Source: an uncultured Candidatus Saccharibacteria bacterium
GTDB lineage: Bacteria; Patescibacteriota; Doudnabacteria; UBA920
DNA length: 38,939 nucleotides
Direction of reading: 5' to 3'
NCBI GenBank assembly: GCA_964561655.1
Contig: CAZLQG010000004.1
Coordinates: 1-38,939, forward strand
The notes under the pieces were generated by a model. The model saw only the letters and a list, made by a program, of their open reading frames with translations. It made no database searches and was not told the DNA's origin. Positions 262 through 21,857 of this stretch are shown here, piece by piece. Position 1 is the stretch's first letter. Each line of letters opens with the position of its first letter. Position numbers and translations under genes: made by a program.

Positions 262-317
262 CGTGATATTTTAATTAATGATTTTGTTAAGTGCTGTTTA
301 CCCGTCTGCCGATCGCC

Positions 318-393
318 TGGAGCCGGCTGTCGGACTCGAACCGACCACCTACGGTTTACAAAACCGTTGCTCTACCGGATGAGCTAAGCCGGC
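318..393 (-). tRNA. trnT: tRNA-Thr (anticodon UGU), CCA encoded
   Basis: Reverse complement is GCCGGCTTAGCTCATCCGGTAGAGCAACGGTTTTGTAAACCGTAGGTGGTCGGTTCGAGTCCGACAGCCGGCTCCA. Acceptor stem is a perfect 7 bp. Anticodon stem ACGGT/ACCGT with loop TTTGTAA. T arm GTCGG/CCGAC. Confidence 0.92.
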
Positions 394-576
394 ACCCGGC
401 GACTGGCGGGCAGGCAAAACAGTTAATTCGGGCTGAGCGGAGTTTACCCCGAACCGAACAACGTTCTGGTTCGGGGCTGGCTAACTTTTCAAATTCTACC
501 ATAAAATCGTAAAAAAATCCAGTGTTCCAAAGAGTTTTGAATATTGCTATAATATGTTGGTAATTAATGTAAAATC

Positions 577-2751: not shown

Positions 2752-2838
2752 TGGTGCAGGGAGCAGGATTCGAACCTGCGTAGCCACAAGGGCGGCTGAT
2801 TTACAGTCAGCTGCGATTGACCGCTCCGCCATCCCTGC
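2752..2838 (-). tRNA. trnY: tRNA-Tyr (anticodon GUA), class II long variable arm, CCA encoded
   Basis: Reverse complement is GCAGGGATGGCGGAGCGGTCAATCGCAGCTGACTGTAAATCAGCCGCCCTTGTGGCTACGCAGGTTCGAATCCTGCTCCCTGCACCA. Anticodon stem GCTGA/TCAGC with loop CTGTAAA. Acceptor GCAGGGA/TCCCTGC. Confidence 0.9.
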
Positions 2839-3091
2839 AAAATGATGACTTCGTTATTAATTTTTTAAAGGCCTCTCCGCCTTTGTATTTTTTAATTTGA
2901 AACTCTCTTCTGTATGCGTCTTGTTTTGAGGCGAAAATTTCTTTATAAACAATCTCCCAAGGCATGCCTTGCTTAGTAGACTTATTTTTTCCTTGGTTGT
3001 GTCTTTTCAGGCGGTTTTCTAGATTATTGGTGTGCCCAATATAATATCTATTTTTTGAATCGCTACGTAATATATAAACGTAATATGTCAT
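2807..3091 (-). CDS. small GIY-YIG nuclease family protein; its 3' end overlaps tRNA-Tyr
   Basis: I place the start at the internal ATG (3091-3089), giving MTYYVYILRSDSKNRYYIGHTNNLENRLKRHNQGK... This carries the GIY-YIG motifs (YVYIL...YIGHT, R..H, and a downstream E). The last ~10 codons and the TGA stop lie inside tRNA-Tyr (2807-2838). Confidence 0.75.
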   Translation of the reverse strand: MTYYVYILRSDSKNRYYIGHTNNLENRLKRHNQGKNKSTKQGMPWEIVYKEIFASKQDAYRREFQIKKYKGGEAFKKLITKSSFCRDGGAVNRS

Positions 3092-3153
3092 CGGGACCGC
3101 CCACCGCCTTTGGCGGGGCCCCGCTGAAAGCGGTGGTCCGCCATCCCTGCAAA
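2842..3153 (-). mobile_element. 312-bp GIY-YIG insertion unit bounded by a 17-bp direct repeat of the tRNA-Tyr 5' end
   Basis: TCCGCCATCCCTGCAAA occurs at 2825-2841 and again at 3137-3153. The unit contains a GC-rich hairpin segment (3092-3136) plus the GIY-YIG ORF. Confidence 0.5.
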
Positions 3154-3224
3154 GTAAATAAATTATTAAATTATGCTGATAAATTTTATCAAATTTTTCT
3201 AGAAAAAGCAACCCTTTAGAGTAT

Positions 3225-3929
3225 TTATCCAGCCAAAATTCCCGCTATCAGGCCTACCCCCAAAGCAATGCCGCCGATGATTAGCATCCTTAAACCGGAT
3301 TTAAGAAAAGGCTGTTTGGTAAATTTGGTGGTGGTCGCGCCTAAGACGAAAAGGCCAATAAGCGTTAAGCCAATGGAAATAGGCACCGCTGTTTTTATGG
3401 GTAATACAAAATAAGAGAACAAAGGAATAATGCCGCCAATTACGTAAGCCCCAAACATATACAGCCCGCCTTTAATGGAAGTGGAATTTTTAGAAGGAAA
3501 AACATTGAGTTCGCGAATAGCCATTTCTTTTAGCATTAGCTTTTGGTTTTGCGAAGCGGTATTGGTCATTTCTTTGGCTAAGTTTTTCGGCCAGCCTTCT
3601 TCAATATAGATTTTGAACAATTCGTCTTTTTCTTCCTGCGGAAAAGAAGATATTTCTTCGGTTTCTTCCTGAATTTTCCTTTTTTCCAACTCTTCTTGCG
3701 ATCGGCTGGACAGGTAAGAGCCGATACCCATAGAAATTGATTCCACCGCGATAATTACTATGCCTGCTAAGACAACGGTGTAATGGTTGCCGCTGCCTAT
3801 GGCAATGCCGGTAATAGAGCCTAAAGTAGATACCATGCCGTCTTCCATGCCGAAGACCACTTCCCTTAAGACATCGCTAAAGCGGGAACTTTGATGGTGG
3901 ACGTAGTCTTGGTTGAAATTATGGTGCAT
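3225..3929 (-). CDS. VIT1/CCC1 family iron/manganese transporter
   Basis: 234 aa. N-terminal FGMEDGMVSTLGSITG motif, a central acidic helical segment, and C-terminal TM helices typical of the VIT family. Confidence 0.8.
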   Translation of the reverse strand: MHHNFNQDYVHHQSSRFSDVLREVVFGMEDGMVSTLGSITGIAIGSGNHYTVVLAGIVIIAVESISMGIGSYLSSRSQEELEKRKIQEETEEISSFPQEEKDELFKIYIEEGWPKNLAKEMTNTASQNQKLMLKEMAIRELNVFPSKNSTSIKGGLYMFGAYVIGGIIPLFSYFVLPIKTAVPISIGLTLIGLFVLGATTTKFTKQPFLKSGLRMLIIGGIALGVGLIAGILAG

Positions 3930-3982
3930 AAAGATATTTTAGCAGATTTAAAAAATTTTAGATATTCAGATATTCAAGCAAA

Positions 3983-4006
3983 ATACCCCGAAAACTTTCG
4001 GGGTAT
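3983..4006. terminator. intrinsic terminator hairpin after the minus-strand tRNA cluster
   Basis: ATACCCCGAAA-ac-TTTCGGGGTAT is a perfect hairpin. On the minus strand it is followed by TTTGCTT. Confidence 0.6.
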
Positions 4007-4011
4007 TTCTT

Positions 4012-4090
4012 TGGAGCCGTTGCGCGGATTTGAACCGCGGACCCCGGTAGTACAACCTTCGGTTGACTACGGGGCAGGCCTACTCCTTAC
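4012..4090 (-). pseudogene. orphan tRNA-Thr-like 3' portion: anticodon-loop 3' half, expanded variable region, T arm, acceptor 3' strand, CCA
   Basis: Reverse complement is GTAAGGAGTAGG-CCTGCCCCGTAGTCAACCGAAGGTTGTACTACCGGGG-TC-CGCGGTTCAAATCCGCG-CAACGGC-T-CCA. The first 12 nt are identical to tRNA-Thr(GGU). I found no matching acceptor 5' strand (GCCGTTG) or D arm nearby. Confidence 0.5.
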
Positions 4091-4199
4091 GTTCTCAGCT
4101 TTTCTCTGGAGCCGATGTCCGGATTTGAACCGGAGACCTACTCCTTACCATGGAGTTGCTCTACCAACTGAGCTACATCGGCAGAGAAAAGCTGAGAAC
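4091..4199. repeat. perfect 16-bp inverted repeat bracketing tRNA-Thr(GGU)
   Basis: GTTCTCAGCTTTTCTC (4091-4106) abuts the tRNA CCA end. GAGAAAAGCTGAGAAC (4184-4199) lies 1 nt from the tRNA 5' end. The two arms are exact reverse complements. Confidence 0.9.
4107..4182 (-). tRNA. trnT: tRNA-Thr (anticodon GGU), CCA encoded
   Basis: Reverse complement is GCCGATGTAGCTCAGTTGGTAGAGCAACTCCATGGTAAGGAGTAGGTCTCCGGTTCAAATCCGGACATCGGCTCCA. The cloverleaf is canonical, with anticodon loop ATGGTAA. Confidence 0.92.
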
Positions 4200-4224
4200 T
4201 ATAGAGTTGCGGCATTTATCCTAT

Positions 4225-5058
4225 TTAGATTTGCTTTTTTTTATTTGGCAAACTTAGCTTCTCTGCTTTTAGCGTTGCCTGTTTTGCTTTTTTAGCCTGT
4301 CCCAGTTTTGCATAGGCATTTGACAGCCCAAGGTAAAACTTTGCGTTTTTGCCTTCCAAGTCGATGGCTTTTTCAAAAGCTAATACTGCCTCATCCCATT
4401 TTTCTAAAGCGCCAAAGCATAAACCTAAGTTATAATAGCGGTTTGGCTGGGTTGAATCAAGGCTTAGGGAAGTTTCGTAATTTTTAACGGCTTGGTCGTA
4501 GATGCCGGTCTGGTAAAAGCATAAAGCTAATTTGGCATGGTAGTCGCTATTCCCCGCTTCGTGGTGCGTGAGGTACAAATAAATATCTTTGGCTTCGGGG
4601 TAATTTTTTTGAGCCAAATAGAACTTGCCGAGATCGTCGTAAAGTTTTAAGTTTTTTGGCTCTTTTTTGATGGCTTCCAAAAAACCGTTTTCATCTTTAA
4701 TTTGTGTTCGGGTTTCGGCAGCAATCTCTTGAGGCGCTGATGCCTGCCGGGCTGTTTTATGGGTTTTTTTGAAAAACTTTTTAATTTGATAGCCGGCCTT
4801 GGCGGAAGGTTTTAAATCTTTGGCTTCCAAAACAAAGTTCCAGAATTTTTTCCACCAAAGCTTAAGCGAAGTTTTAATTTTGGAAATATTTAAAGTCGGC
4901 AATCCCTTGTCAGCCAGTTTCTGGTCGAAAGAATCTGCACTTACGTTGTTTGGCTCTGGGTTTATAGCTGCGGGCAGGCGTCTTAAGATTATGAGGATAA
5001 TCCCCACTACCGCCAATATAAAAATTATGTTTGGTAAGAATTGGTAAGACAAAACCAT
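4225..5058 (-). CDS. membrane-anchored TPR repeat protein
   Basis: 277 aa. N-terminal TM helix (IIFILAVVGIILIIL) followed by several 34-aa TPR-like units (e.g. AKDIYLYLTHHEAGNSDYHAKLALCFYQTGIYDQAVKNYETSL). Confidence 0.7.
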   Translation of the reverse strand: MVLSYQFLPNIIFILAVVGIILIILRRLPAAINPEPNNVSADSFDQKLADKGLPTLNISKIKTSLKLWWKKFWNFVLEAKDLKPSAKAGYQIKKFFKKTHKTARQASAPQEIAAETRTQIKDENGFLEAIKKEPKNLKLYDDLGKFYLAQKNYPEAKDIYLYLTHHEAGNSDYHAKLALCFYQTGIYDQAVKNYETSLSLDSTQPNRYYNLGLCFGALEKWDEAVLAFEKAIDLEGKNAKFYLGLSNAYAKLGQAKKAKQATLKAEKLSLPNKKKQI

Positions 5059-16861: not shown

Positions 16862-17068
16862 CATTTGTTATATTTAATTTAGTTCATCAAACGATATCAT
16901 CCGGGCTACCAACCTGGAGAGTTTGGAACAATGGTATAAAAAGGTCCCGATGTCTAGAGAATCGGGGCAAGCTGGGACGGAAACGTTCTGGTTATTTTAA
17001 TCAGAACCCCAGGGTTTGGCTTGTCATCTATTGCTGATGATGAGCCGTGTCCTGGGGTTTTGTGTTTT
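16862..17068 (+). promoter_or_regulatory. structured leader or attenuator-like RNA (or stand-alone sRNA) ending in a strong intrinsic terminator
   Basis: It contains a chain of mutually exclusive helices (listed in the findings). The terminator is ACCCCAGG-GTTT-GGCTTGTCATC-loop-GATGATGAGCC-GTGT-CCTGGGGT followed by TTTTGTGTTTT (17006-17068). Confidence 0.4.
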
Positions 17069-17448
17069 GTCATTCCGAGCGAACCCGACAAAGTCGGGAG
17101 AGCCGAGGAATCGCTTATCCGATGATATATGAAAGCGCATCATTATTTTGTATACATCATGGCTAGCGCGTCAGGTACTTTGTATATTGGAGTAACGAAT
17201 AATTTGATAAAGAGAGTTTGGGAACATAAATACGATGTTATCGGGGGCTTTACTTAAAGATATCAATGTCATAAGCTCGTTTATTTTGAACAAACCGACA
17301 ATGTTGAATCCGCAATTTTAAGAGAAAAGCAACTAAAAAACTGGAATCGCAAAAAGAAGGAGCTTTTAATAAAAACTAAGAGCTCACATTGGAAAGATTT
17401 ATATAACAAAATTATTTAAGAGATCTCTCCGCTACGGTCGGGATGACA
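17068..17448 (+). mobile_element. GIY-YIG mini-element with imperfect terminal inverted repeats
   Basis: TGTCATTCCGAGCG (17068-17081) matches the reverse complement of 17435-17448 (TGTCATCCCGACCG) at 12 of 14 positions. The left end also has an internal hairpin, CCCGAC-aaa-GTCGGG. Confidence 0.5.
17129..17419 (+). pseudogene. GIY-YIG nuclease (COG2827-like) with an in-frame TAA
   Basis: Translates as MKAHHYFVYIMASASGTLYIGVTNNLIKRVWEHKYDVIGGFT, then TAA (17255-17257), then RYQCHKLVYFEQTDNVESAILREKQLKNWNRKKKELLIKTKSSHWKDLYNKII, all in one frame. The stop sits where related proteins have Lys. Confidence 0.7.
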
Positions 17449-17458
17449 AAGACAGGCT

Positions 17459-19291
17459 ATGGATAACAATCAAAAATTCCATAACATCCGGCATTCGCTC
17501 GCGCATCTTTTGGCCGCGGCGGTTTTGGAAATGTTTCCAAAGGCACAGCTCGGCGTTGGGCCGGTAATTGAAAACGGATTTTTTTATGATTTTCTTCTCC
17601 CCCGCCCGGTAACGCCCGAGGACATAAAAAAGTTGGAAAAGCGAATGCGGGCTTTAGCGCAGCAAAAGCTGAAGTTTGAACGCGTGGAAATGTCTATGGC
17701 TGAAGCCAAGGAATATTTTGAAAGCCGGAGGCAGCCGTTTAAAGTGGAATTAATTAAGGACATTGAAAAGTTTGGAACCACTAAGGCGGATGAGAAACTG
17801 AATGCAGAATCAGGAATTATGAATCAGGAATTAGGAACGACATCAAAAACGGAGAAAGTAAGTCTGTATAAAACCGGGAATTTTGTGGACTTATGCCGGG
17901 GTGGACATGTGGAAAATACTTCGCAAATTCGCACGGACGCTTTTAAATTAGACAAGGTAAGCGGCGCTTACTGGCGGGGCGACCAGAAAAATCCGCAAAT
18001 GCAGAGAATTTACGGCATTGCCTTTGAAACCAAAATGGAATTGGAGAAATATCAAAAAATGCAGGAAGAAGCAAAAAAGCGAGACCATAGAATTTTAGGA
18101 AAGCAATTAGACCTTTTTACTTTTTCTGAATTAGTGGGCGCCGGCCTGCCTTTATGGACCCCGAGAGGAACCTTGCTCAGAAATTTATTGGACGATTACG
18201 TATGGCAGTTAAGGAAACAAGCGGGTTTTGTTAAAGTTGAAATCCCCCATATTACCAAGAAAGGTTTATATGAAACCAGCGGGCACTGGGCAAAGTTTAA
18301 GAATGAGCTATTTAGAATTGAGACCCGTGAAGGCCATGAATTTGCCATGAAGCCCATGAATTGTCCACATCATATTGAAATTTTCAAGCGCAAACTCCAT
18401 AGTTATAGGGATTTACCGCAAAGGTATGCCAATACCACGATGGTTTACCGAGATGAGCAAACCGGCGAGCTTAATGGTCTGTCCCGCGTGCGCTGTATTA
18501 CTCAGGACGACGCGCATGTTTTTTGCCGCTATTCTCAAATCAGGCAGGAGATTCTGGAGCTTTGGGACGTGATTACAAAATTTTATAAAGCCAGCGGCAA
18601 GTTTAAAATGAGGATTAGGCTTTCTTTTTACGACCCAAAACAATCCCAAAATTACTTAGGAGACAAGGTAATTTGGGAGAAAGCGCAAGAAGAGCTAAAG
18701 AAGGCAATTATGGTAAAAAAAGTAAAATTTGAAGAGGCAGTGGGCGAGGCCGCTTTTTACGGACCGAAAATTGACTTTATGGCGAACGATTCAATGGGGA
18801 GGGAGTGGCAGCTGGCTACGATTCAACTGGACATGAATCTGCCCGAGCAATTTGATTTAACTTGCGTAAACGAAAAGGGCGAGTTGGAAAGAATTGCTAT
18901 GTTGCACTGTGCGGTAATGGGTTCAATAGAAAGATACCTTTCAATTTTAATAGAGCATTTGGCTGGCTATTTCCCACTCTGGCTTTCCCCCGTTCAGGTG
19001 GCTGTTCTGCCGATTTCTAAAAAGCAAAACGCTTATGCTAAGAAGATGATGAAAGAACTATCATCGGTTGAGCCGGATTTAAGGATAGAACTTGATGACC
19101 GTGATGAATCTGTCGGTAAAAAAATCAGGGAAGCGACTCTGCAGAAAATCCCCTACCAAATAATTTTGGGCGAAAAAGAAGTAAAAGCAAAAAAAATCGC
19201 CGTACGCACCCGTAAAGGCAAGGATTTAGGAACCATAGGCCTCAAAAAGTTTTTGGATAAAATCACGGAAGAAATCGCAAATAAAAAATAG
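17459..19291 (+). CDS. thrS: threonyl-tRNA synthetase (no N-terminal TGS domain)
   Basis: 610 aa. Starts in the second additional (editing-associated) domain (HNIRHSLAHLLA). Class II core FAMKPMNCPHH, and a C-terminal anticodon-binding domain. Confidence 0.93.
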   Translation: MDNNQKFHNIRHSLAHLLAAAVLEMFPKAQLGVGPVIENGFFYDFLLPRPVTPEDIKKLEKRMRALAQQKLKFERVEMSMAEAKEYFESRRQPFKVELIKDIEKFGTTKADEKLNAESGIMNQELGTTSKTEKVSLYKTGNFVDLCRGGHVENTSQIRTDAFKLDKVSGAYWRGDQKNPQMQRIYGIAFETKMELEKYQKMQEEAKKRDHRILGKQLDLFTFSELVGAGLPLWTPRGTLLRNLLDDYVWQLRKQAGFVKVEIPHITKKGLYETSGHWAKFKNELFRIETREGHEFAMKPMNCPHHIEIFKRKLHSYRDLPQRYANTTMVYRDEQTGELNGLSRVRCITQDDAHVFCRYSQIRQEILELWDVITKFYKASGKFKMRIRLSFYDPKQSQNYLGDKVIWEKAQEELKKAIMVKKVKFEEAVGEAAFYGPKIDFMANDSMGREWQLATIQLDMNLPEQFDLTCVNEKGELERIAMLHCAVMGSIERYLSILIEHLAGYFPLWLSPVQVAVLPISKKQNAYAKKMMKELSSVEPDLRIELDDRDESVGKKIREATLQKIPYQIILGEKEVKAKKIAVRTRKGKDLGTIGLKKFLDKITEEIANKK

Positions 19292-19905: not shown

Positions 19906-20667
19906 TTAGGTTAGAACCCTACCGCCCTTTTTTCCCACAGCCACCGTATGCTCAAAATGCGCGGCAAGTCCGCCGTCGGCCGTGCGGATAGTCCAGCCGT
20001 CATCGTCAACAGCGATCTTCCATTCTTTTTCACATAACATCGGTTCTATCGCAAGCACCATGCCTTCTTCCAGTTTTAATCCTTGACCTTTTGTCCCGTA
20101 GCAGGGGACCTGTGGATCTTCATGGACGTCATAACCTACGCCGTGGCCTACTAAATCCCTCACTACCGAAAAACCGGCAGCTTGTGCGACTGACTGGATA
20201 ATAAAGCCAATATCCCCGATCATATTTCTTGCTCTAGCCGCTTTAATTGCCTCTTCAAGGCATTTTTTTGTTGTACTGATAAGTTTTGTCGCAACATGAG
20301 ATATTCTGCCTACCGGTACAGTAATCGCGGTATCCGTAAACAGGCCTTTATATTCCATACCGACGTCCAAGTTTATAATGTCGCCTTCTTTTAGAATTTC
20401 TTTTTGAGATGGAACGCCGTGTACGATTACGTCATTGGTTGAAGTGCACAGTCCGGCCGGGAAAGGGTTTTTTTTATCGCCATAATTTTTAAAACTTGAC
20501 CTGCCGCCTGCTTCCCTGATCTTTTTTTCCGTAAACTCATTCAATTCCCAGGTTGAAACGCCCGGCTTTGCCAGTTTGGCCGCGTCGTGCAAAATATCGC
20601 GCAGGATTTTTCCGCCGGCAGCTATAATTTCTATTTCTTCGTTTGTTTTAATTAAGCCTGTTTTCAT
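19906..20667 (-). CDS. map: methionine aminopeptidase type I
   Basis: 253 aa. The metal-ligand context is conserved (DINLDVG, HGVGYDVHEDP, LAIEP, FEHTV). Confidence 0.92.
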   Translation of the reverse strand: MKTGLIKTNEEIEIIAAGGKILRDILHDAAKLAKPGVSTWELNEFTEKKIREAGGRSSFKNYGDKKNPFPAGLCTSTNDVIVHGVPSQKEILKEGDIINLDVGMEYKGLFTDTAITVPVGRISHVATKLISTTKKCLEEAIKAARARNMIGDIGFIIQSVAQAAGFSVVRDLVGHGVGYDVHEDPQVPCYGTKGQGLKLEEGMVLAIEPMLCEKEWKIAVDDDGWTIRTADGGLAAHFEHTVAVGKKGGRVLT

Positions 20668-21274
20668 AATCTTCCAGTTTTGTAAGCAGCCGTTTTCTGG
20701 CCGCAGGGATTGCGCCGTGTGTAGAAATTTTTATAAAAGCATATCTTTTTTTAAAAAATTTGACGACTTGCTTGATGTTTTTTTGGTAATATCGGATACG
20801 GTTCCTAAGCGCCTTATTGTTGTCGTCGGGCCGCTTGGAAAATTTTCCTTTAAAATAGGTTTTGCGGCTGGTCATTCTGTGGATGGTCTCTTTTGGTGGA
20901 ATGGTTAAATAAATAAACAAAACTCGTCTGCGTTTTTCGGCCCTTAGCCATTTAGCGACCAGTTTGGCTTCCCCGAGCATTTTTGGAGTGCCGTTTAAAA
21001 GCACGCCTTGATTTTTAGGTACATTGTGAATTTTGTCGCGTAACAGTTTTCTTACCAGTTCGGTTGGCGTAAGCTTGCCTTTGTCCAAGGTTTTGTCGAG
21101 GCGGTATTTTTTACGCAAGGCTTTGTTGTGGTTTAAAGCTCTGAGCTCCCTTCCCATATCCAAGTCGTAAAGATTGTATTTTTTTGCCAAATATCTTCCG
21201 TGGGTAGCCTTGCCTGCCGCTGGGTCGCCGAGCAGGATGACATTTAAAGGCGCAGTTTTTTTTGAATTCGCCAT
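20648..21274 (-). CDS. adenylate kinase-family nucleoside monophosphate kinase paralogue
   Basis: 208 aa. Divergent P-loop GDPAAGKAT, an NMP-binding-like segment, and LLNGTPKMLGEAK (compare DGFPRTxxQA). Very basic. Overlaps map by 20 nt. Confidence 0.65.
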   Translation of the reverse strand: MANSKKTAPLNVILLGDPAAGKATHGRYLAKKYNLYDLDMGRELRALNHNKALRKKYRLDKTLDKGKLTPTELVRKLLRDKIHNVPKNQGVLLNGTPKMLGEAKLVAKWLRAEKRRRVLFIYLTIPPKETIHRMTSRKTYFKGKFSKRPDDNNKALRNRIRYYQKNIKQVVKFFKKRYAFIKISTHGAIPAARKRLLTKLEDYENRLN

Positions 21275-21278
21275 CAGG

Positions 21279-21857
21279 TTAATTTTTCAGCTTTAAGGTT
21301 TGGTTAATGTTTTTGTCGACTTCTTCAATGCTGGGCCGGCCGTCAATAACAAAAAATTGGGTTTGGTTTTTTAAGTAGTCCAGTACTGGCAGCGTGTCCT
21401 CGTAGTATTGTTTAAGTCTGAGTTCAATTTTTTCTTTGGTGTCGTCTGCGCGGCCTTCTTGCTTGGCACGAAGAAGCAGCCTTTCCAGCGAGTATTCTTT
21501 TGGTATATCTAAAAAGATTGTTGCAAAATTAGTTCTACCCTGTTTTTTTAAAAAATCCATCAAAAATTCAGCCTGGCCTAGGCGCCGCGGGATGCCATCG
21601 AAGATTACCCCTTGGTCTTTGTTTATTTTTGACAGCCTTGATTCTGCAACCTTTAAAAGCAAATCATCACCCAATAAAATTCCTCTATCAACCAGCCTTT
21701 TTACCTCTTTGCCAAGTTCTGTGTCTTCCTTGCCGGCTCCTCTTAAAATTCCGCCCATTTCCCAATAAAAAAAACCAAGGCGTTTGGAAAGAAGGCGGGC
21801 CTGCGTTCCTTTGCCTGACCCTTGCGGGCCAATAAAGAAAATTGTGTTTAAGTTCAT
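21279..21857 (-). CDS. adk: adenylate kinase (short LID type)
   Basis: 192 aa. Motifs GPQGSGKGTQ, GGILR, and FDGIPRRLGQAE. Confidence 0.9.
   Translation of the reverse strand: MNLNTIFFIGPQGSGKGTQARLLSKRLGFFYWEMGGILRGAGKEDTELGKEVKRLVDRGILLGDDLLLKVAESRLSKINKDQGVIFDGIPRRLGQAEFLMDFLKKQGRTNFATIFLDIPKEYSLERLLLRAKQEGRADDTKEKIELRLKQYYEDTLPVLDYLKNQTQFFVIDGRPSIEEVDKNINQTLKLKN

Follow-up and report, generated by a model that had tools for sequence, protein, structure and literature searches.

A tRNA-Thr gene on a long hairpin within the anticodon loop of an older copy of itself in a bacterium of the Candidate Phyla Radiation

A working tRNA-Thr(GGU) gene enclosed by a perfect inverted repeat

We analysed a tRNA-Thr(GGU) locus on contig CAZLQG010000004.1, a 39-kb stretch of DNA (referred to as the window) from a bacterium of the Candidate Phyla Radiation (CPR). 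In the part of the window shown, a working tRNA-Thr(GGU) gene stands on the tip of a perfect 17–18-bp hairpin, which in turn projects from the anticodon-loop apex of an earlier copy of that gene. On a slight balance of probability, we read this arrangement as a replacement copy, bounded by a hairpin, that entered at the loop apex, with the helix now insulating the folding of the tRNA and probably guiding its excision. All features of this nest lie on the minus strand. The inserted unit is 109 nt long (one tRNA and a 17-bp stem) and comprises the following parts:

4183..4199, minus strand: leader arm of the stalk, GTTCTCAGCTTTTCTCT, which pairs with 4107..4091 (A76 plus the trailer; inverted repeat I1)
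4182..4107, minus strand: working tRNA-Thr(GGU) with an encoded CCA and a full cloverleaf (ARAGORN; Rfam RF00005, 71.1 bits against a threshold of 29)
4091..4106, minus strand: trailer arm of the stalk, GAGAAAAGCTGAGAAC, beginning immediately 3' of the CCA (inverted repeat and folds)

An initial reading of the window, made from the sequence alone (referred to as the sequence-only reading), had placed a canonical tRNA-Thr(GGU) at 4107-4182, and both ARAGORN and Rfam called it there (minus strand, 71 bits). The tRNA is bracketed by a perfect inverted repeat (I1) of 18 nt per arm (4091-4108 and 4182-4199). The arms reach into the tRNA, one including G1 and the other C75 and A76, so that 17 nt of the repeat lie outside the tRNA at its 5' end and 16 nt at its 3' end, in agreement with the exact 16-mers described earlier, one abutting the CCA and the other 1 nt away from the 5' end. 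At up to three mismatches the stalk arm is unique in the window (chance expectation 0.03 matches; two matches were obtained in 0 of 100 shuffles).

The duplex of leader and trailer has a predicted energy of -33.4 kcal/mol (z = -7.2 against shuffles), and the stalk appears in both the minimum-free-energy and the centroid fold. In these folds 17 leader bases pair with A76 and 16 trailer bases, and the helix stacks on the acceptor stem, with U73, C74 and C75 remaining as a 3-nt bulge beside it. These folds agree with the earlier prediction that the acceptor stem is prolonged in the transcript by a helix of about 16 bp. The whole nest was found to be identical in two further independent metagenome assemblies, save for a compensatory pair in the hairpin described below and a few bases near the 3' end, and is therefore not an assembly artefact.

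For comparison we used contigs of related lineages (designated L002 to L023), of which L004 and also L003 are close to the window and L023 is more distant, while L013 belongs to another genus and L002 to the same species. The inner tRNA of the window is identical over 76/76 positions to a nested tRNA of L023.

The outer copy is a disabled tRNA-Thr(GGU) gene

The anticodon loop into which the inner unit is set belongs to a second, tRNA-Thr(GGU)-like sequence, of which only positions 24-76 are left. Its pieces, together with an insert that they enclose, are:

4200..4210, minus strand: 5' piece of the outer copy, GC-A-ACTCT-ATA, corresponding to positions 24-34 with C31T and G34A (direct repeat D4)
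4090..4079, minus strand: positions 35-46 of the outer copy, GTAA-GGAGT-AGG (GTAAGGAGTAGG; direct repeat D2, matched 12/12 to the inner tRNA by BLAST)
4042..4078, minus strand: palindromic insert of 37 nt, CCTGCCCCGTAGTCAACCGAAGGTTGTACTACCGGGG (CCTGCCCCGTAG...CTACCGGGG), between positions 46 and 47 of the outer copy, whose base and 1-nt bulge are conserved while the tip varies
4012..4041, minus strand: positions 47-76 of the outer copy, i.e. TC, the T arm CGCGG-TTCAAAT-CCGCG (4039..4023), CAACGGC (4022..4016), T73 and CCA (4014..4012) (direct repeat D1)

When the block is taken out, the flanks rejoin as ACTCT-ATA/GTAA-GGAGT (the slash marks the junction), with a loop of exactly 7 nt; the clean anticodon stem-loop reported earlier was recovered when the sequence was re-read. 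Because a G is repeated at both junctions, the insertion point lies either between positions 34 and 35 or between 35 and 36, an ambiguity of one base. In the predicted folds GGAGT of the outer copy pairs with ACTCT at 4207..4203 and forms the base of a composite helix.

The outer copy differs from the inner tRNA at seven positions (31, 34, 49/65, 50/64 and 68), of which 49/65 and 50/64 are two compensatory pairs of the T-stem, and 31 and 34 reflect decay. The T-stem of the outer copy (CGCGG/CCGCG) recurs unchanged in the L003 working gene and in the L004 outer copy. The working genes nearest to the outer copy are those of L003 and the inner tRNA of L004 (four differences each), and its 3' part is nearly identical in the window and in L004 despite otherwise unalignable intergenic DNA. 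We identify the outer sequence as an older, disabled version of this gene, which has lost its first third, carries a mutated anticodon and holds a palindrome in its variable loop. To judge by its T-stem, it is a valid allele distinct from the inner tRNA.

The sequence-only reading had given the outer anticodon as AGU or CGU. This did not hold: less decayed outer copies (L010, L005, L006) read ATGG/TAA, and A34 is therefore a substitution in a GGU gene. The absence of a D arm and of the 5' strand of the acceptor stem was confirmed. The same reading had found no GCCGTTG nearby, which stands as regards the acceptor strand as a whole; however, the GCCG at 4213..4210, which shares its last base with the outer 5' piece, may be a 4-nt vestige of acceptor positions 1-4. 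The stop codon of the upstream TPR gene (4227..4225) lies 11 nt upstream of this possible vestige. The same-species contig L002 (1275-1283) diverges from the window just after the outer-copy CAACGGCTC and then ends, which represents either a strain variant downstream of the relic or a branch in the assembly graph.

No match of the Rfam tRNA model to the outer copy was obtained at E <= 10 in the region 3900-4300. A permissive Rfam search of 3900-4300 and of four related loci detected only the intact tRNAs, and no intron, transfer-messenger RNA or tRNA-like family. With introns of up to 400 nt allowed, ARAGORN called only the inner gene, and it called no outer copy in place at any locus tried. 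A 5' half-gene, GCCGTTGTAGCTCAG, sought in the window at up to three mismatches, was found only as part of the inner gene.

The junctions were also compared with the bulge-helix-bulge motif, defined as two 3-nt bulges on opposite strands, 4 bp apart and bearing the splice sites. This motif was rejected, because the two junctions share one end of the stalk, where they fall within a symmetric internal loop (AUA / GUAA) at the base of the helix. Nor would a cut at the variable-loop hairpin, with its 3-nt 5' overhang and 1-nt bulge, restore AGG/UC. A split tRNA with its 5' half elsewhere, which had been proposed earlier, is not supported, given the absence of such a half in the window and of a bulge-helix-bulge, and given the outer copies of other lineages, which occur at every stage of decay down to a bare anticodon arm.

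Nested tRNA genes in related lineages

An alignment across related genomes had been called for, and it revealed the nested layout again in L004, L010 and L023. In L004 the working tRNA stands in a 13-bp stalk inside an outer copy that still holds its 5' half. This outer copy bears precise inserts in the D loop, the D stem, the anticodon loop and the variable loop; when five precise inserts were removed in silico, a cloverleaf with a decayed anticodon was obtained. In L023 (3418-3639) the host of the nested tRNA-Thr(GGU) is a decayed full-length copy, and the insert sits in its T loop rather than its anticodon loop. This outer copy shows about 13 substitutions and indels and has a leader/trailer stem of its own, with a T run behind it. 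Arms of 14 nt that differ by a single mismatch border the L023 insert.

Contig L010 carries two nests. Its tRNA-Thr is nested between positions 35 and 36, and its tRNA-Trp (3029-3276, minus strand) stands at the same point of an outer tRNA-Trp, which ARAGORN calls once the 171-nt insert has been removed in silico. The outer and the inner tRNA-Trp differ by compensatory stem pairs, and a third, older 5' relic directly upstream represents yet another allele (GGGGCGTCGTATAGTG). Two further contigs contain related remains: in L006 the working tRNA lies just 5' of a relic with an empty stalk in its anticodon loop, and L005 carries tandem relics with an extra precise insert in the T loop.

Nested tRNA and surrounding relic are of the same kind in every case (GGU in GGU, UGU in UGU, Trp in Trp), and the inserts are placed at or beside the loop apex. 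The outer copies form a series, from intact (L010 tRNA-Trp) through decayed (L004, L023) and truncated (GGU locus of the window) to a bare stem (L010 tRNA-Thr and the UGU locus of the window). Un-nested tRNA-Thr loci were found in L003, L013-L016, L021 and L022. One of the explanations offered by the sequence-only reading, a decaying Thr gene struck by palindromic or cassette insertions, is the one that the evidence favours, with two corrections: the isoacceptor is GGU, and the locus is one case of recurrent nesting rather than an isolated accident.

The hairpin in the variable loop of the outer copy

A hairpin had been noticed earlier in the variable loop as a 33-nt element at 4042-4074. The site is correct, while the length is 37 nt, as removal of 37 nt restores AGG/TC exactly; its tip, described as of the C(UUCG)G type on the plus strand, reads CAACC-GAA-GGTTG on the transcribed strand. 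L004 (twice), L005, L006 and L010 share this junction and the base of the hairpin. In all, the base CCTG-CCCCGTAG...CTAC(C/T)GGGG is conserved in seven copies from five lineages, with the bulge kept and the tips different, and the L002 hairpin differs from that of the window by a compensatory pair (G>A / C>T). The window hairpin is identical at 36/37 positions to the L005 copy, though the L33 protein of L005 is only about 46% identical, and it differs from the copies in the closest relative, L004. To judge from these alignments, this distribution points to horizontal spread or to repeated insertion between positions 46 and 47 of disabled tRNA-Thr copies.

The hairpin was never seen inside a working tRNA. 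Like repetitive extragenic palindromic (REP) elements, it is an imperfect palindrome with conserved flanking bases and a conserved bulge, present in several genomes. The window contains one copy, and elsewhere it always occupies the same tRNA-Thr site; the public scans for related loci used one narrow, junction-specific pattern, GGAGTAGG/CCTGCCCCGTAG, so that other contexts are unsampled in this count. REP elements typically occur in many dispersed copies with an associated Y1 (RAYT) transposase; no transposase was found in the window.

Farther downstream in L004 (4255-4640) we observed an array of additional tRNA-Thr relics filled with small hairpins, CCCCGACCCGAAGGCGTCGGGG (three copies) and a CCCTCCGAAGCTTTAAGCGAAGGAGGG-like type. 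The latter type also occurs downstream of tRNA-Thr in another genus (L013, 6180-6215).

Other disrupted tRNA loci in the window

A second nest is formed by the tRNA-Thr(UGU) gene of the window:

293..424, minus strand: tRNA-Thr(UGU) at 393..318, in a stalk and a relic anticodon arm (sequence and fold; duplex z = -2.9)

Its stalk is of the CTGCC/GGCAG type (arms 414..398 and 317..301, spacer GGGT) and is homologous to the stalk of L010. The flanks of the stalk, AACTGTTTTG (424..415) and TAAACAGC (300..293), match the UGU anticodon arm at 9/10 and 7/10 positions, against 6/10 and 6/10 for the GGU arm. By this match they are the apparent relic of the anticodon arm of the UGU tRNA itself, split between positions 35 and 36; an assignment to a GGU-type relic with compensatory changes was dropped, given the better match to the own arm. 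In the relic stem, pair 29-41 has changed from G-C to T-A with pairing kept.

A CCCC...GGGG hairpin followed by TAAACTC is common to the 5' leaders of the window tRNA-Thr(UGU) (441-476) and of the L006 tRNA-Thr(GGU) (3551-3597). It resembles the stalk-end / CAACTCC junction of L005 and may be another buried layer of relics.

The tRNA-Tyr gene (2807-3153, minus strand) carries a GIY-YIG gene in its D loop, between positions 14 and 15. A 17-nt direct repeat, TTTGCAGGGATGGCGGA, which consists of a 3-nt leader and tRNA-Tyr positions 1-14 (copies at 3153..3137 and 2841..2825), brackets a 312-bp unit composed of a G/C-rich double hairpin and the GIY-YIG open reading frame (ORF), and restores the tRNA. 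Insertions that disrupt and then restore a tRNA gene therefore occur in this genome.

In the gap of about 760 nt upstream of thrS (17459-19291), a GIY-YIG-like reading frame, MASASGTLYIGVTNNLIKRVWEHK..., is interrupted by a stop (17060-17460, plus strand). It is bracketed by inverted TTTGTCATTCCGAGCG / CGGGATGACAAAG ends and looks like a decayed small mobile endonuclease gene.

Leader/trailer stalks at tRNA-Thr loci

Significant leader/trailer duplexes were detected in eight of the 14 tRNA-Thr loci (z = -2.7 to -7.2 against shuffles). At tRNA-Tyr no leader/trailer duplex reached significance, and the only tRNA-Trp with some flank pairing is that of L010 (z = -2.2), which is itself nested. Stalk sequences are mostly perfect and mostly unrelated between lineages. 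Several belong to one family of the CTGCC/GGCAG type: window UGU, L003, L005, L006 (empty), L010 tRNA-Thr and L010 tRNA-Trp. The trailer arm starts at or beside the CCA across the stalked loci, and where a spacer of 3-5 nt precedes G1 the stalk helix continues the acceptor stem in register. In the un-nested loci of L014 (5855-5975) and L016 (3300-3415) the stalk is followed by a T run, and the whole looks like the terminator hairpin of the operon with a tRNA in its loop.

Since pairing is kept while the sequence changes, the helix probably has a role. As in stalks of the RNase III type, a long helix of leader and trailer encloses a mature RNA. We propose two functions, namely insulation of the tRNA from look-alike flanks and provision of a double-stranded cleavage site; RNase III-type processing of the predicted stalk, an option raised by the sequence-only reading, is plausible.

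Origin of the nested arrangement

According to the reading we prefer, the outer copy would be the resident, vertically inherited gene, and a DNA segment bounded by a hairpin would have brought in the inner copy as a replacement allele. This assignment of roles rests on the T-stem of the outer copy, found again in the L003 working gene and the L004 outer copy, and on the inner tRNA, which has its identical counterpart in the more distant L023. The segment would insert at the tip of a stem-loop with no target duplication, and would kill the resident gene and supply its function in one step; disrupted copies would decay afterwards. The same process would have acted at the tRNA-Thr(UGU) of the window and at tRNA-Thr and tRNA-Trp of other CPR lineages. 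In its present state, the unit would form the last part of an rpsB-tsf-TPR operon transcript that ends with the hairpin at 4008..3981. Stacking of the stalk on the acceptor stem and on the relic anticodon stem would give one long rod, which would prevent mispairing of the tRNA with its look-alike flanks and would offer a double-stranded site for an RNase III-type cut, with RNase P and 3' trimming finishing the ends. As far as the sequences can be read, a hairpin-bounded segment inserted at a loop apex with no target duplication fits all cases.

Several observations weigh against this interpretation. The window contains 35 ORFs of 80 aa or more, and Pfam searches of the largest 27 among them revealed no integrase, transposase or reverse transcriptase. 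At up to three mismatches the stalk arm occurs nowhere else in the window. Searches of viral contigs with the hairpin junction and with a 22-mer (tRNA-Thr positions 25-46) gave 0 matches, so a phage attachment site is likewise unsupported. The half of the window stalk next to the tRNA (CTTTTCTCT / AGAGAAAAG) looks like leaders and trailers that are native to un-nested relatives, and the L023 insert includes about 12 nt of leader homologous to the own leader of the outer copy; these two features fit a local duplication and an incoming cassette alike. The outer copies of the window and L004 share C31T and the variable-loop hairpin, while their stalks and inner tRNAs are unrelated, and one old event followed by exchange of the cassette cannot be told from two independent events. 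The comparison of nested and un-nested loci rests on a handful of lineages, with several alignments of short flanks made by eye.

The main rival is local self-duplication through template switching, which we consider unlikely. Replication or break repair would stall at the hairpin tip of a tRNA gene, switch to the same gene on the sister copy, copy the leader, tRNA and trailer, and return; the border repeats would derive from earlier flanking hairpins or from later selection. Besides the native-like half of the window stalk and the leader and T-stem that the inner and outer copies of L023 share, it would account for the residence of each tRNA in a relic of its own kind and for the lack of a mobility gene in the window. 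However, inner and outer copies in the window, in L004 and in the tRNA-Trp of L010 differ by several compensatory stem pairs, which argues that they are distinct valid alleles and not fresh duplicates. Moreover, the single tRNA-Trp locus of L010 contains three different alleles, and the inner tRNA of the window is identical to that of the more distant L023, unlike those of the closer L003 and L004.

It is quite unlikely that the flanks are a selected RNA scaffold, in which the anticodon-stem look-alike and the CCUGCCCCGUAG hairpin would bind a factor (e.g. a processing enzyme or the threonyl-tRNA synthetase) and regulate or assist maturation, their tRNA origin being incidental. Such a function would explain why the hairpin base and bulge are conserved in five lineages with varying tips, the compensatory pair in L002, the relic stem at the UGU locus that still pairs after its G-C to T-A change, and the near identity of the outer 3' part between the window and L004 in otherwise unalignable DNA. 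Nevertheless, these elements are absent from many close relatives (L003, L013-L016, L021 and L022), and the extent of the outer copy ranges from a full tRNA to a bare stem. As the tip of the window hairpin is nearly identical to that of a distant lineage and unlike that of the closest relative, horizontal spread fits better than vertical constraint.

Scars of integrative elements are very unlikely as the source of the outer pieces. Integrases that target the anticodon loop leave partial 3' tRNA copies starting from the anticodon stem, and the outer pieces would be remnants of attachment sites after loss of the element. The outer copy of the window does run from the anticodon stem to the 3' end (24-76), with the same 5' limit (position 24 or 25) in L005, L006, L010 and L004, and in L005, L006 and L004 partial copies arranged in tandem follow downstream of the tRNA. 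Recombination in the anticodon loop, however, keeps the halves collinear and cannot place a complete tRNA with non-tRNA arms between them; here the loop of the relic is split in two by the working gene, and the two genes do not form collinear direct repeats on either side of an integrase-encoding element. In addition, L023 is nested in the T loop, L004 and the L010 tRNA-Trp retain the outer 5' half, the window contains no integrase, and neither the hairpin junction nor the tRNA-Thr 22-mer matched viral contigs.

Finally, it is highly improbable that the outer sequence acts as a working tRNA after removal of the insert, intron-like or split in trans, with the inner tRNA released from the excised piece: all inserts are precise and their removal in silico restores canonical loops, the outer copy of the window folds as a tRNA when joined to a hypothetical 5' half, and the outer tRNA-Trp of L010 is intact after excision in silico, but the window copy lacks the acceptor 5' strand and the D arm and has G34 changed to A, its junctions lie in a symmetric internal loop at the base of the helix and form no bulge-helix-bulge, and the copies of other loci are decayed (L023, L004) or reduced to a stem (L010 tRNA-Thr, window UGU). 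We know of no tRNA splicing endonuclease in bacteria, which also counts against this explanation, and no splicing endonuclease, ligase or complementary 5' half-gene was seen in the 39-kb window.

Comparison with known systems

Integrative elements reportedly enter tRNA genes and restore the displaced part with a copy of their own, phages and genomic islands using such attachment sites. The nest resembles them in that (i) the target is a tRNA gene, entered at a stem-loop, (ii) an otherwise lethal insertion carries a replacement for what it displaces, and (iii) displaced tRNA pieces persist as relics beside a working gene. It differs in carrying a whole tRNA instead of a 3' part, in the size of the insert (about 110-170 nt, with no integrase), in its bounding repeats, which are inverted and not direct, and in the position of the relic, both halves of which flank the new gene, whereas integrative elements leave one partial copy at the far end of the island.

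Disrupted tRNA genes with bulge-helix-bulge introns at non-canonical positions, as well as split, tri-split and permuted genes, are said to occur in archaea and algae. They share with our loci the precise inserts in the anticodon, D, variable and T loops and the pairing of leader and trailer around the tRNA sequence. The loci described here, in contrast, are bacterial, form no bulge-helix-bulge, have incomplete or decayed outer exons, and contain an insert that is itself a working gene. Group I introns have reportedly been found in anticodon loops of bacterial tRNA genes, including the cyanobacterial tRNA-Leu, and they too are precise anticodon-loop inserts with no target duplication. Unlike these, the present insert is a 109-nt unit of tRNA and stem with no ribozyme and no match to an Rfam intron, and the host exons have not been kept functional.

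The stalks of rRNA precursors are said to be cut by RNase III, as are, reportedly, the hairpins of Correia-type repeats in Neisseria. In both, as here, a long helix of complementary flanks encloses a mature RNA or a short element, and pairing is conserved while the sequence is not. Unlike rRNA stalks, the helix described here encloses a single tRNA and continues its acceptor stem, and its cleavage is a proposal. Unlike Correia elements, it has no TA target duplication and no multiple copies; a Correia-like element with TA duplication was rejected, since the rejoined loop is exactly 7 nt. Compared with miniature inverted-repeat transposable elements in general, terminal inverted repeats are present (18 nt and perfect in the window, 14 nt with one mismatch in L023), but the window shows no target-site duplication and no second copy of the arm.

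Phage T4 reportedly carries SegB, a free-standing homing endonuclease of the GIY-YIG type, whose gene lies in a tRNA gene cluster. The GIY-YIG gene in the D loop of the window tRNA-Tyr, where a repeat restores the tRNA, is comparable. If a broken tRNA gene were repaired with a foreign allele as template, tRNA alleles would be co-converted, and we regard this possible GIY-YIG link as a lead. No endonuclease gene, however, is present in or beside the tRNA-Thr nest, and homing normally replaces rather than nests.

Despite these resemblances, the locus fails defining features of integrative elements and of archaeal disrupted tRNAs, and it differs from rRNA processing stems in enclosing a single tRNA. 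In a partial search of the literature, from which absence is not established, we found no description of nested self-copy tRNA genes or of tRNA inserts in CPR bacteria. The recurrence at other tRNA genes of related CPR bacteria suggests an undescribed way of tRNA gene replacement. More tentatively, and with considerable doubt, CPR bacteria may hold a new small mobile or exchangeable unit: a hairpin-bounded cassette with a whole tRNA gene as cargo, which inserts with no target duplication at the loop apex of the resident same tRNA (between anticodon-loop positions 35 and 36, or in the T loop), while cargo-less CTGCC/GGCAG hairpins land in the loops of relics. Insertion of such a cassette would be harmless, because the cassette replaces what the insertion destroys. 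If this is true, tRNA alleles would be serially replaced and horizontally exchanged, and the long stalk would be left as a new processing signal.

In very small genomes, tRNA genes are usually viewed as stable, single-copy and vertically inherited. These loci differ: working tRNA genes lie within the wreck of their predecessors, distinct valid alleles are stacked, and the outer copies are graded from intact to vestigial. If the process is active, it would provide (i) a new route of tRNA gene turnover and of horizontal allele exchange in CPR bacteria, (ii) a natural case of an insertion tolerated because it brings the replacement for its target, and (iii) an example of tRNA maturation that starts from a long double-stranded stalk, in organisms with little-known RNA processing. 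Nested loci can also mislead tRNA annotation and isoacceptor counts in metagenome-assembled genomes.

Neighbourhood of the locus

The order of genes is rpsB, tsf, the TPR gene, the tRNA-Thr(GGU) locus, VIT1, GIY-YIG and tRNA-Tyr. Homologues of the TPR protein carry the name Candidatus Doudnabacteria (a CPR lineage), the closest being only 59% identical, and the tRNA-Thr(GGU) gene lies downstream of the TPR gene in every relative that was fetched. A promoter scan gave no convincing signal directly upstream of the tRNA-Thr(GGU) locus. Its downstream end is marked by one further feature:

4008..3981, minus strand: terminator-like hairpin AAATACCCCGAAA-GT-TTTCGGGGTATTT, followed by TGCTT (inverted repeat I2 and fold; a simple terminator scan made no call)

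Judged by its sequence, this hairpin is the probable end of the transcript. Exact-protein look-ups brought to light no strain with an empty site, as they yielded either the same allele or contigs that stop short of the locus. Two metagenome matches to a 19-mer (L007 and L012) had an unrelated context and were set aside as probable chance matches.

Elsewhere in the window (20648-21857, minus strand), two adjacent genes of the adenylate kinase family, encoding 208 and 192 aa, were observed in tandem.

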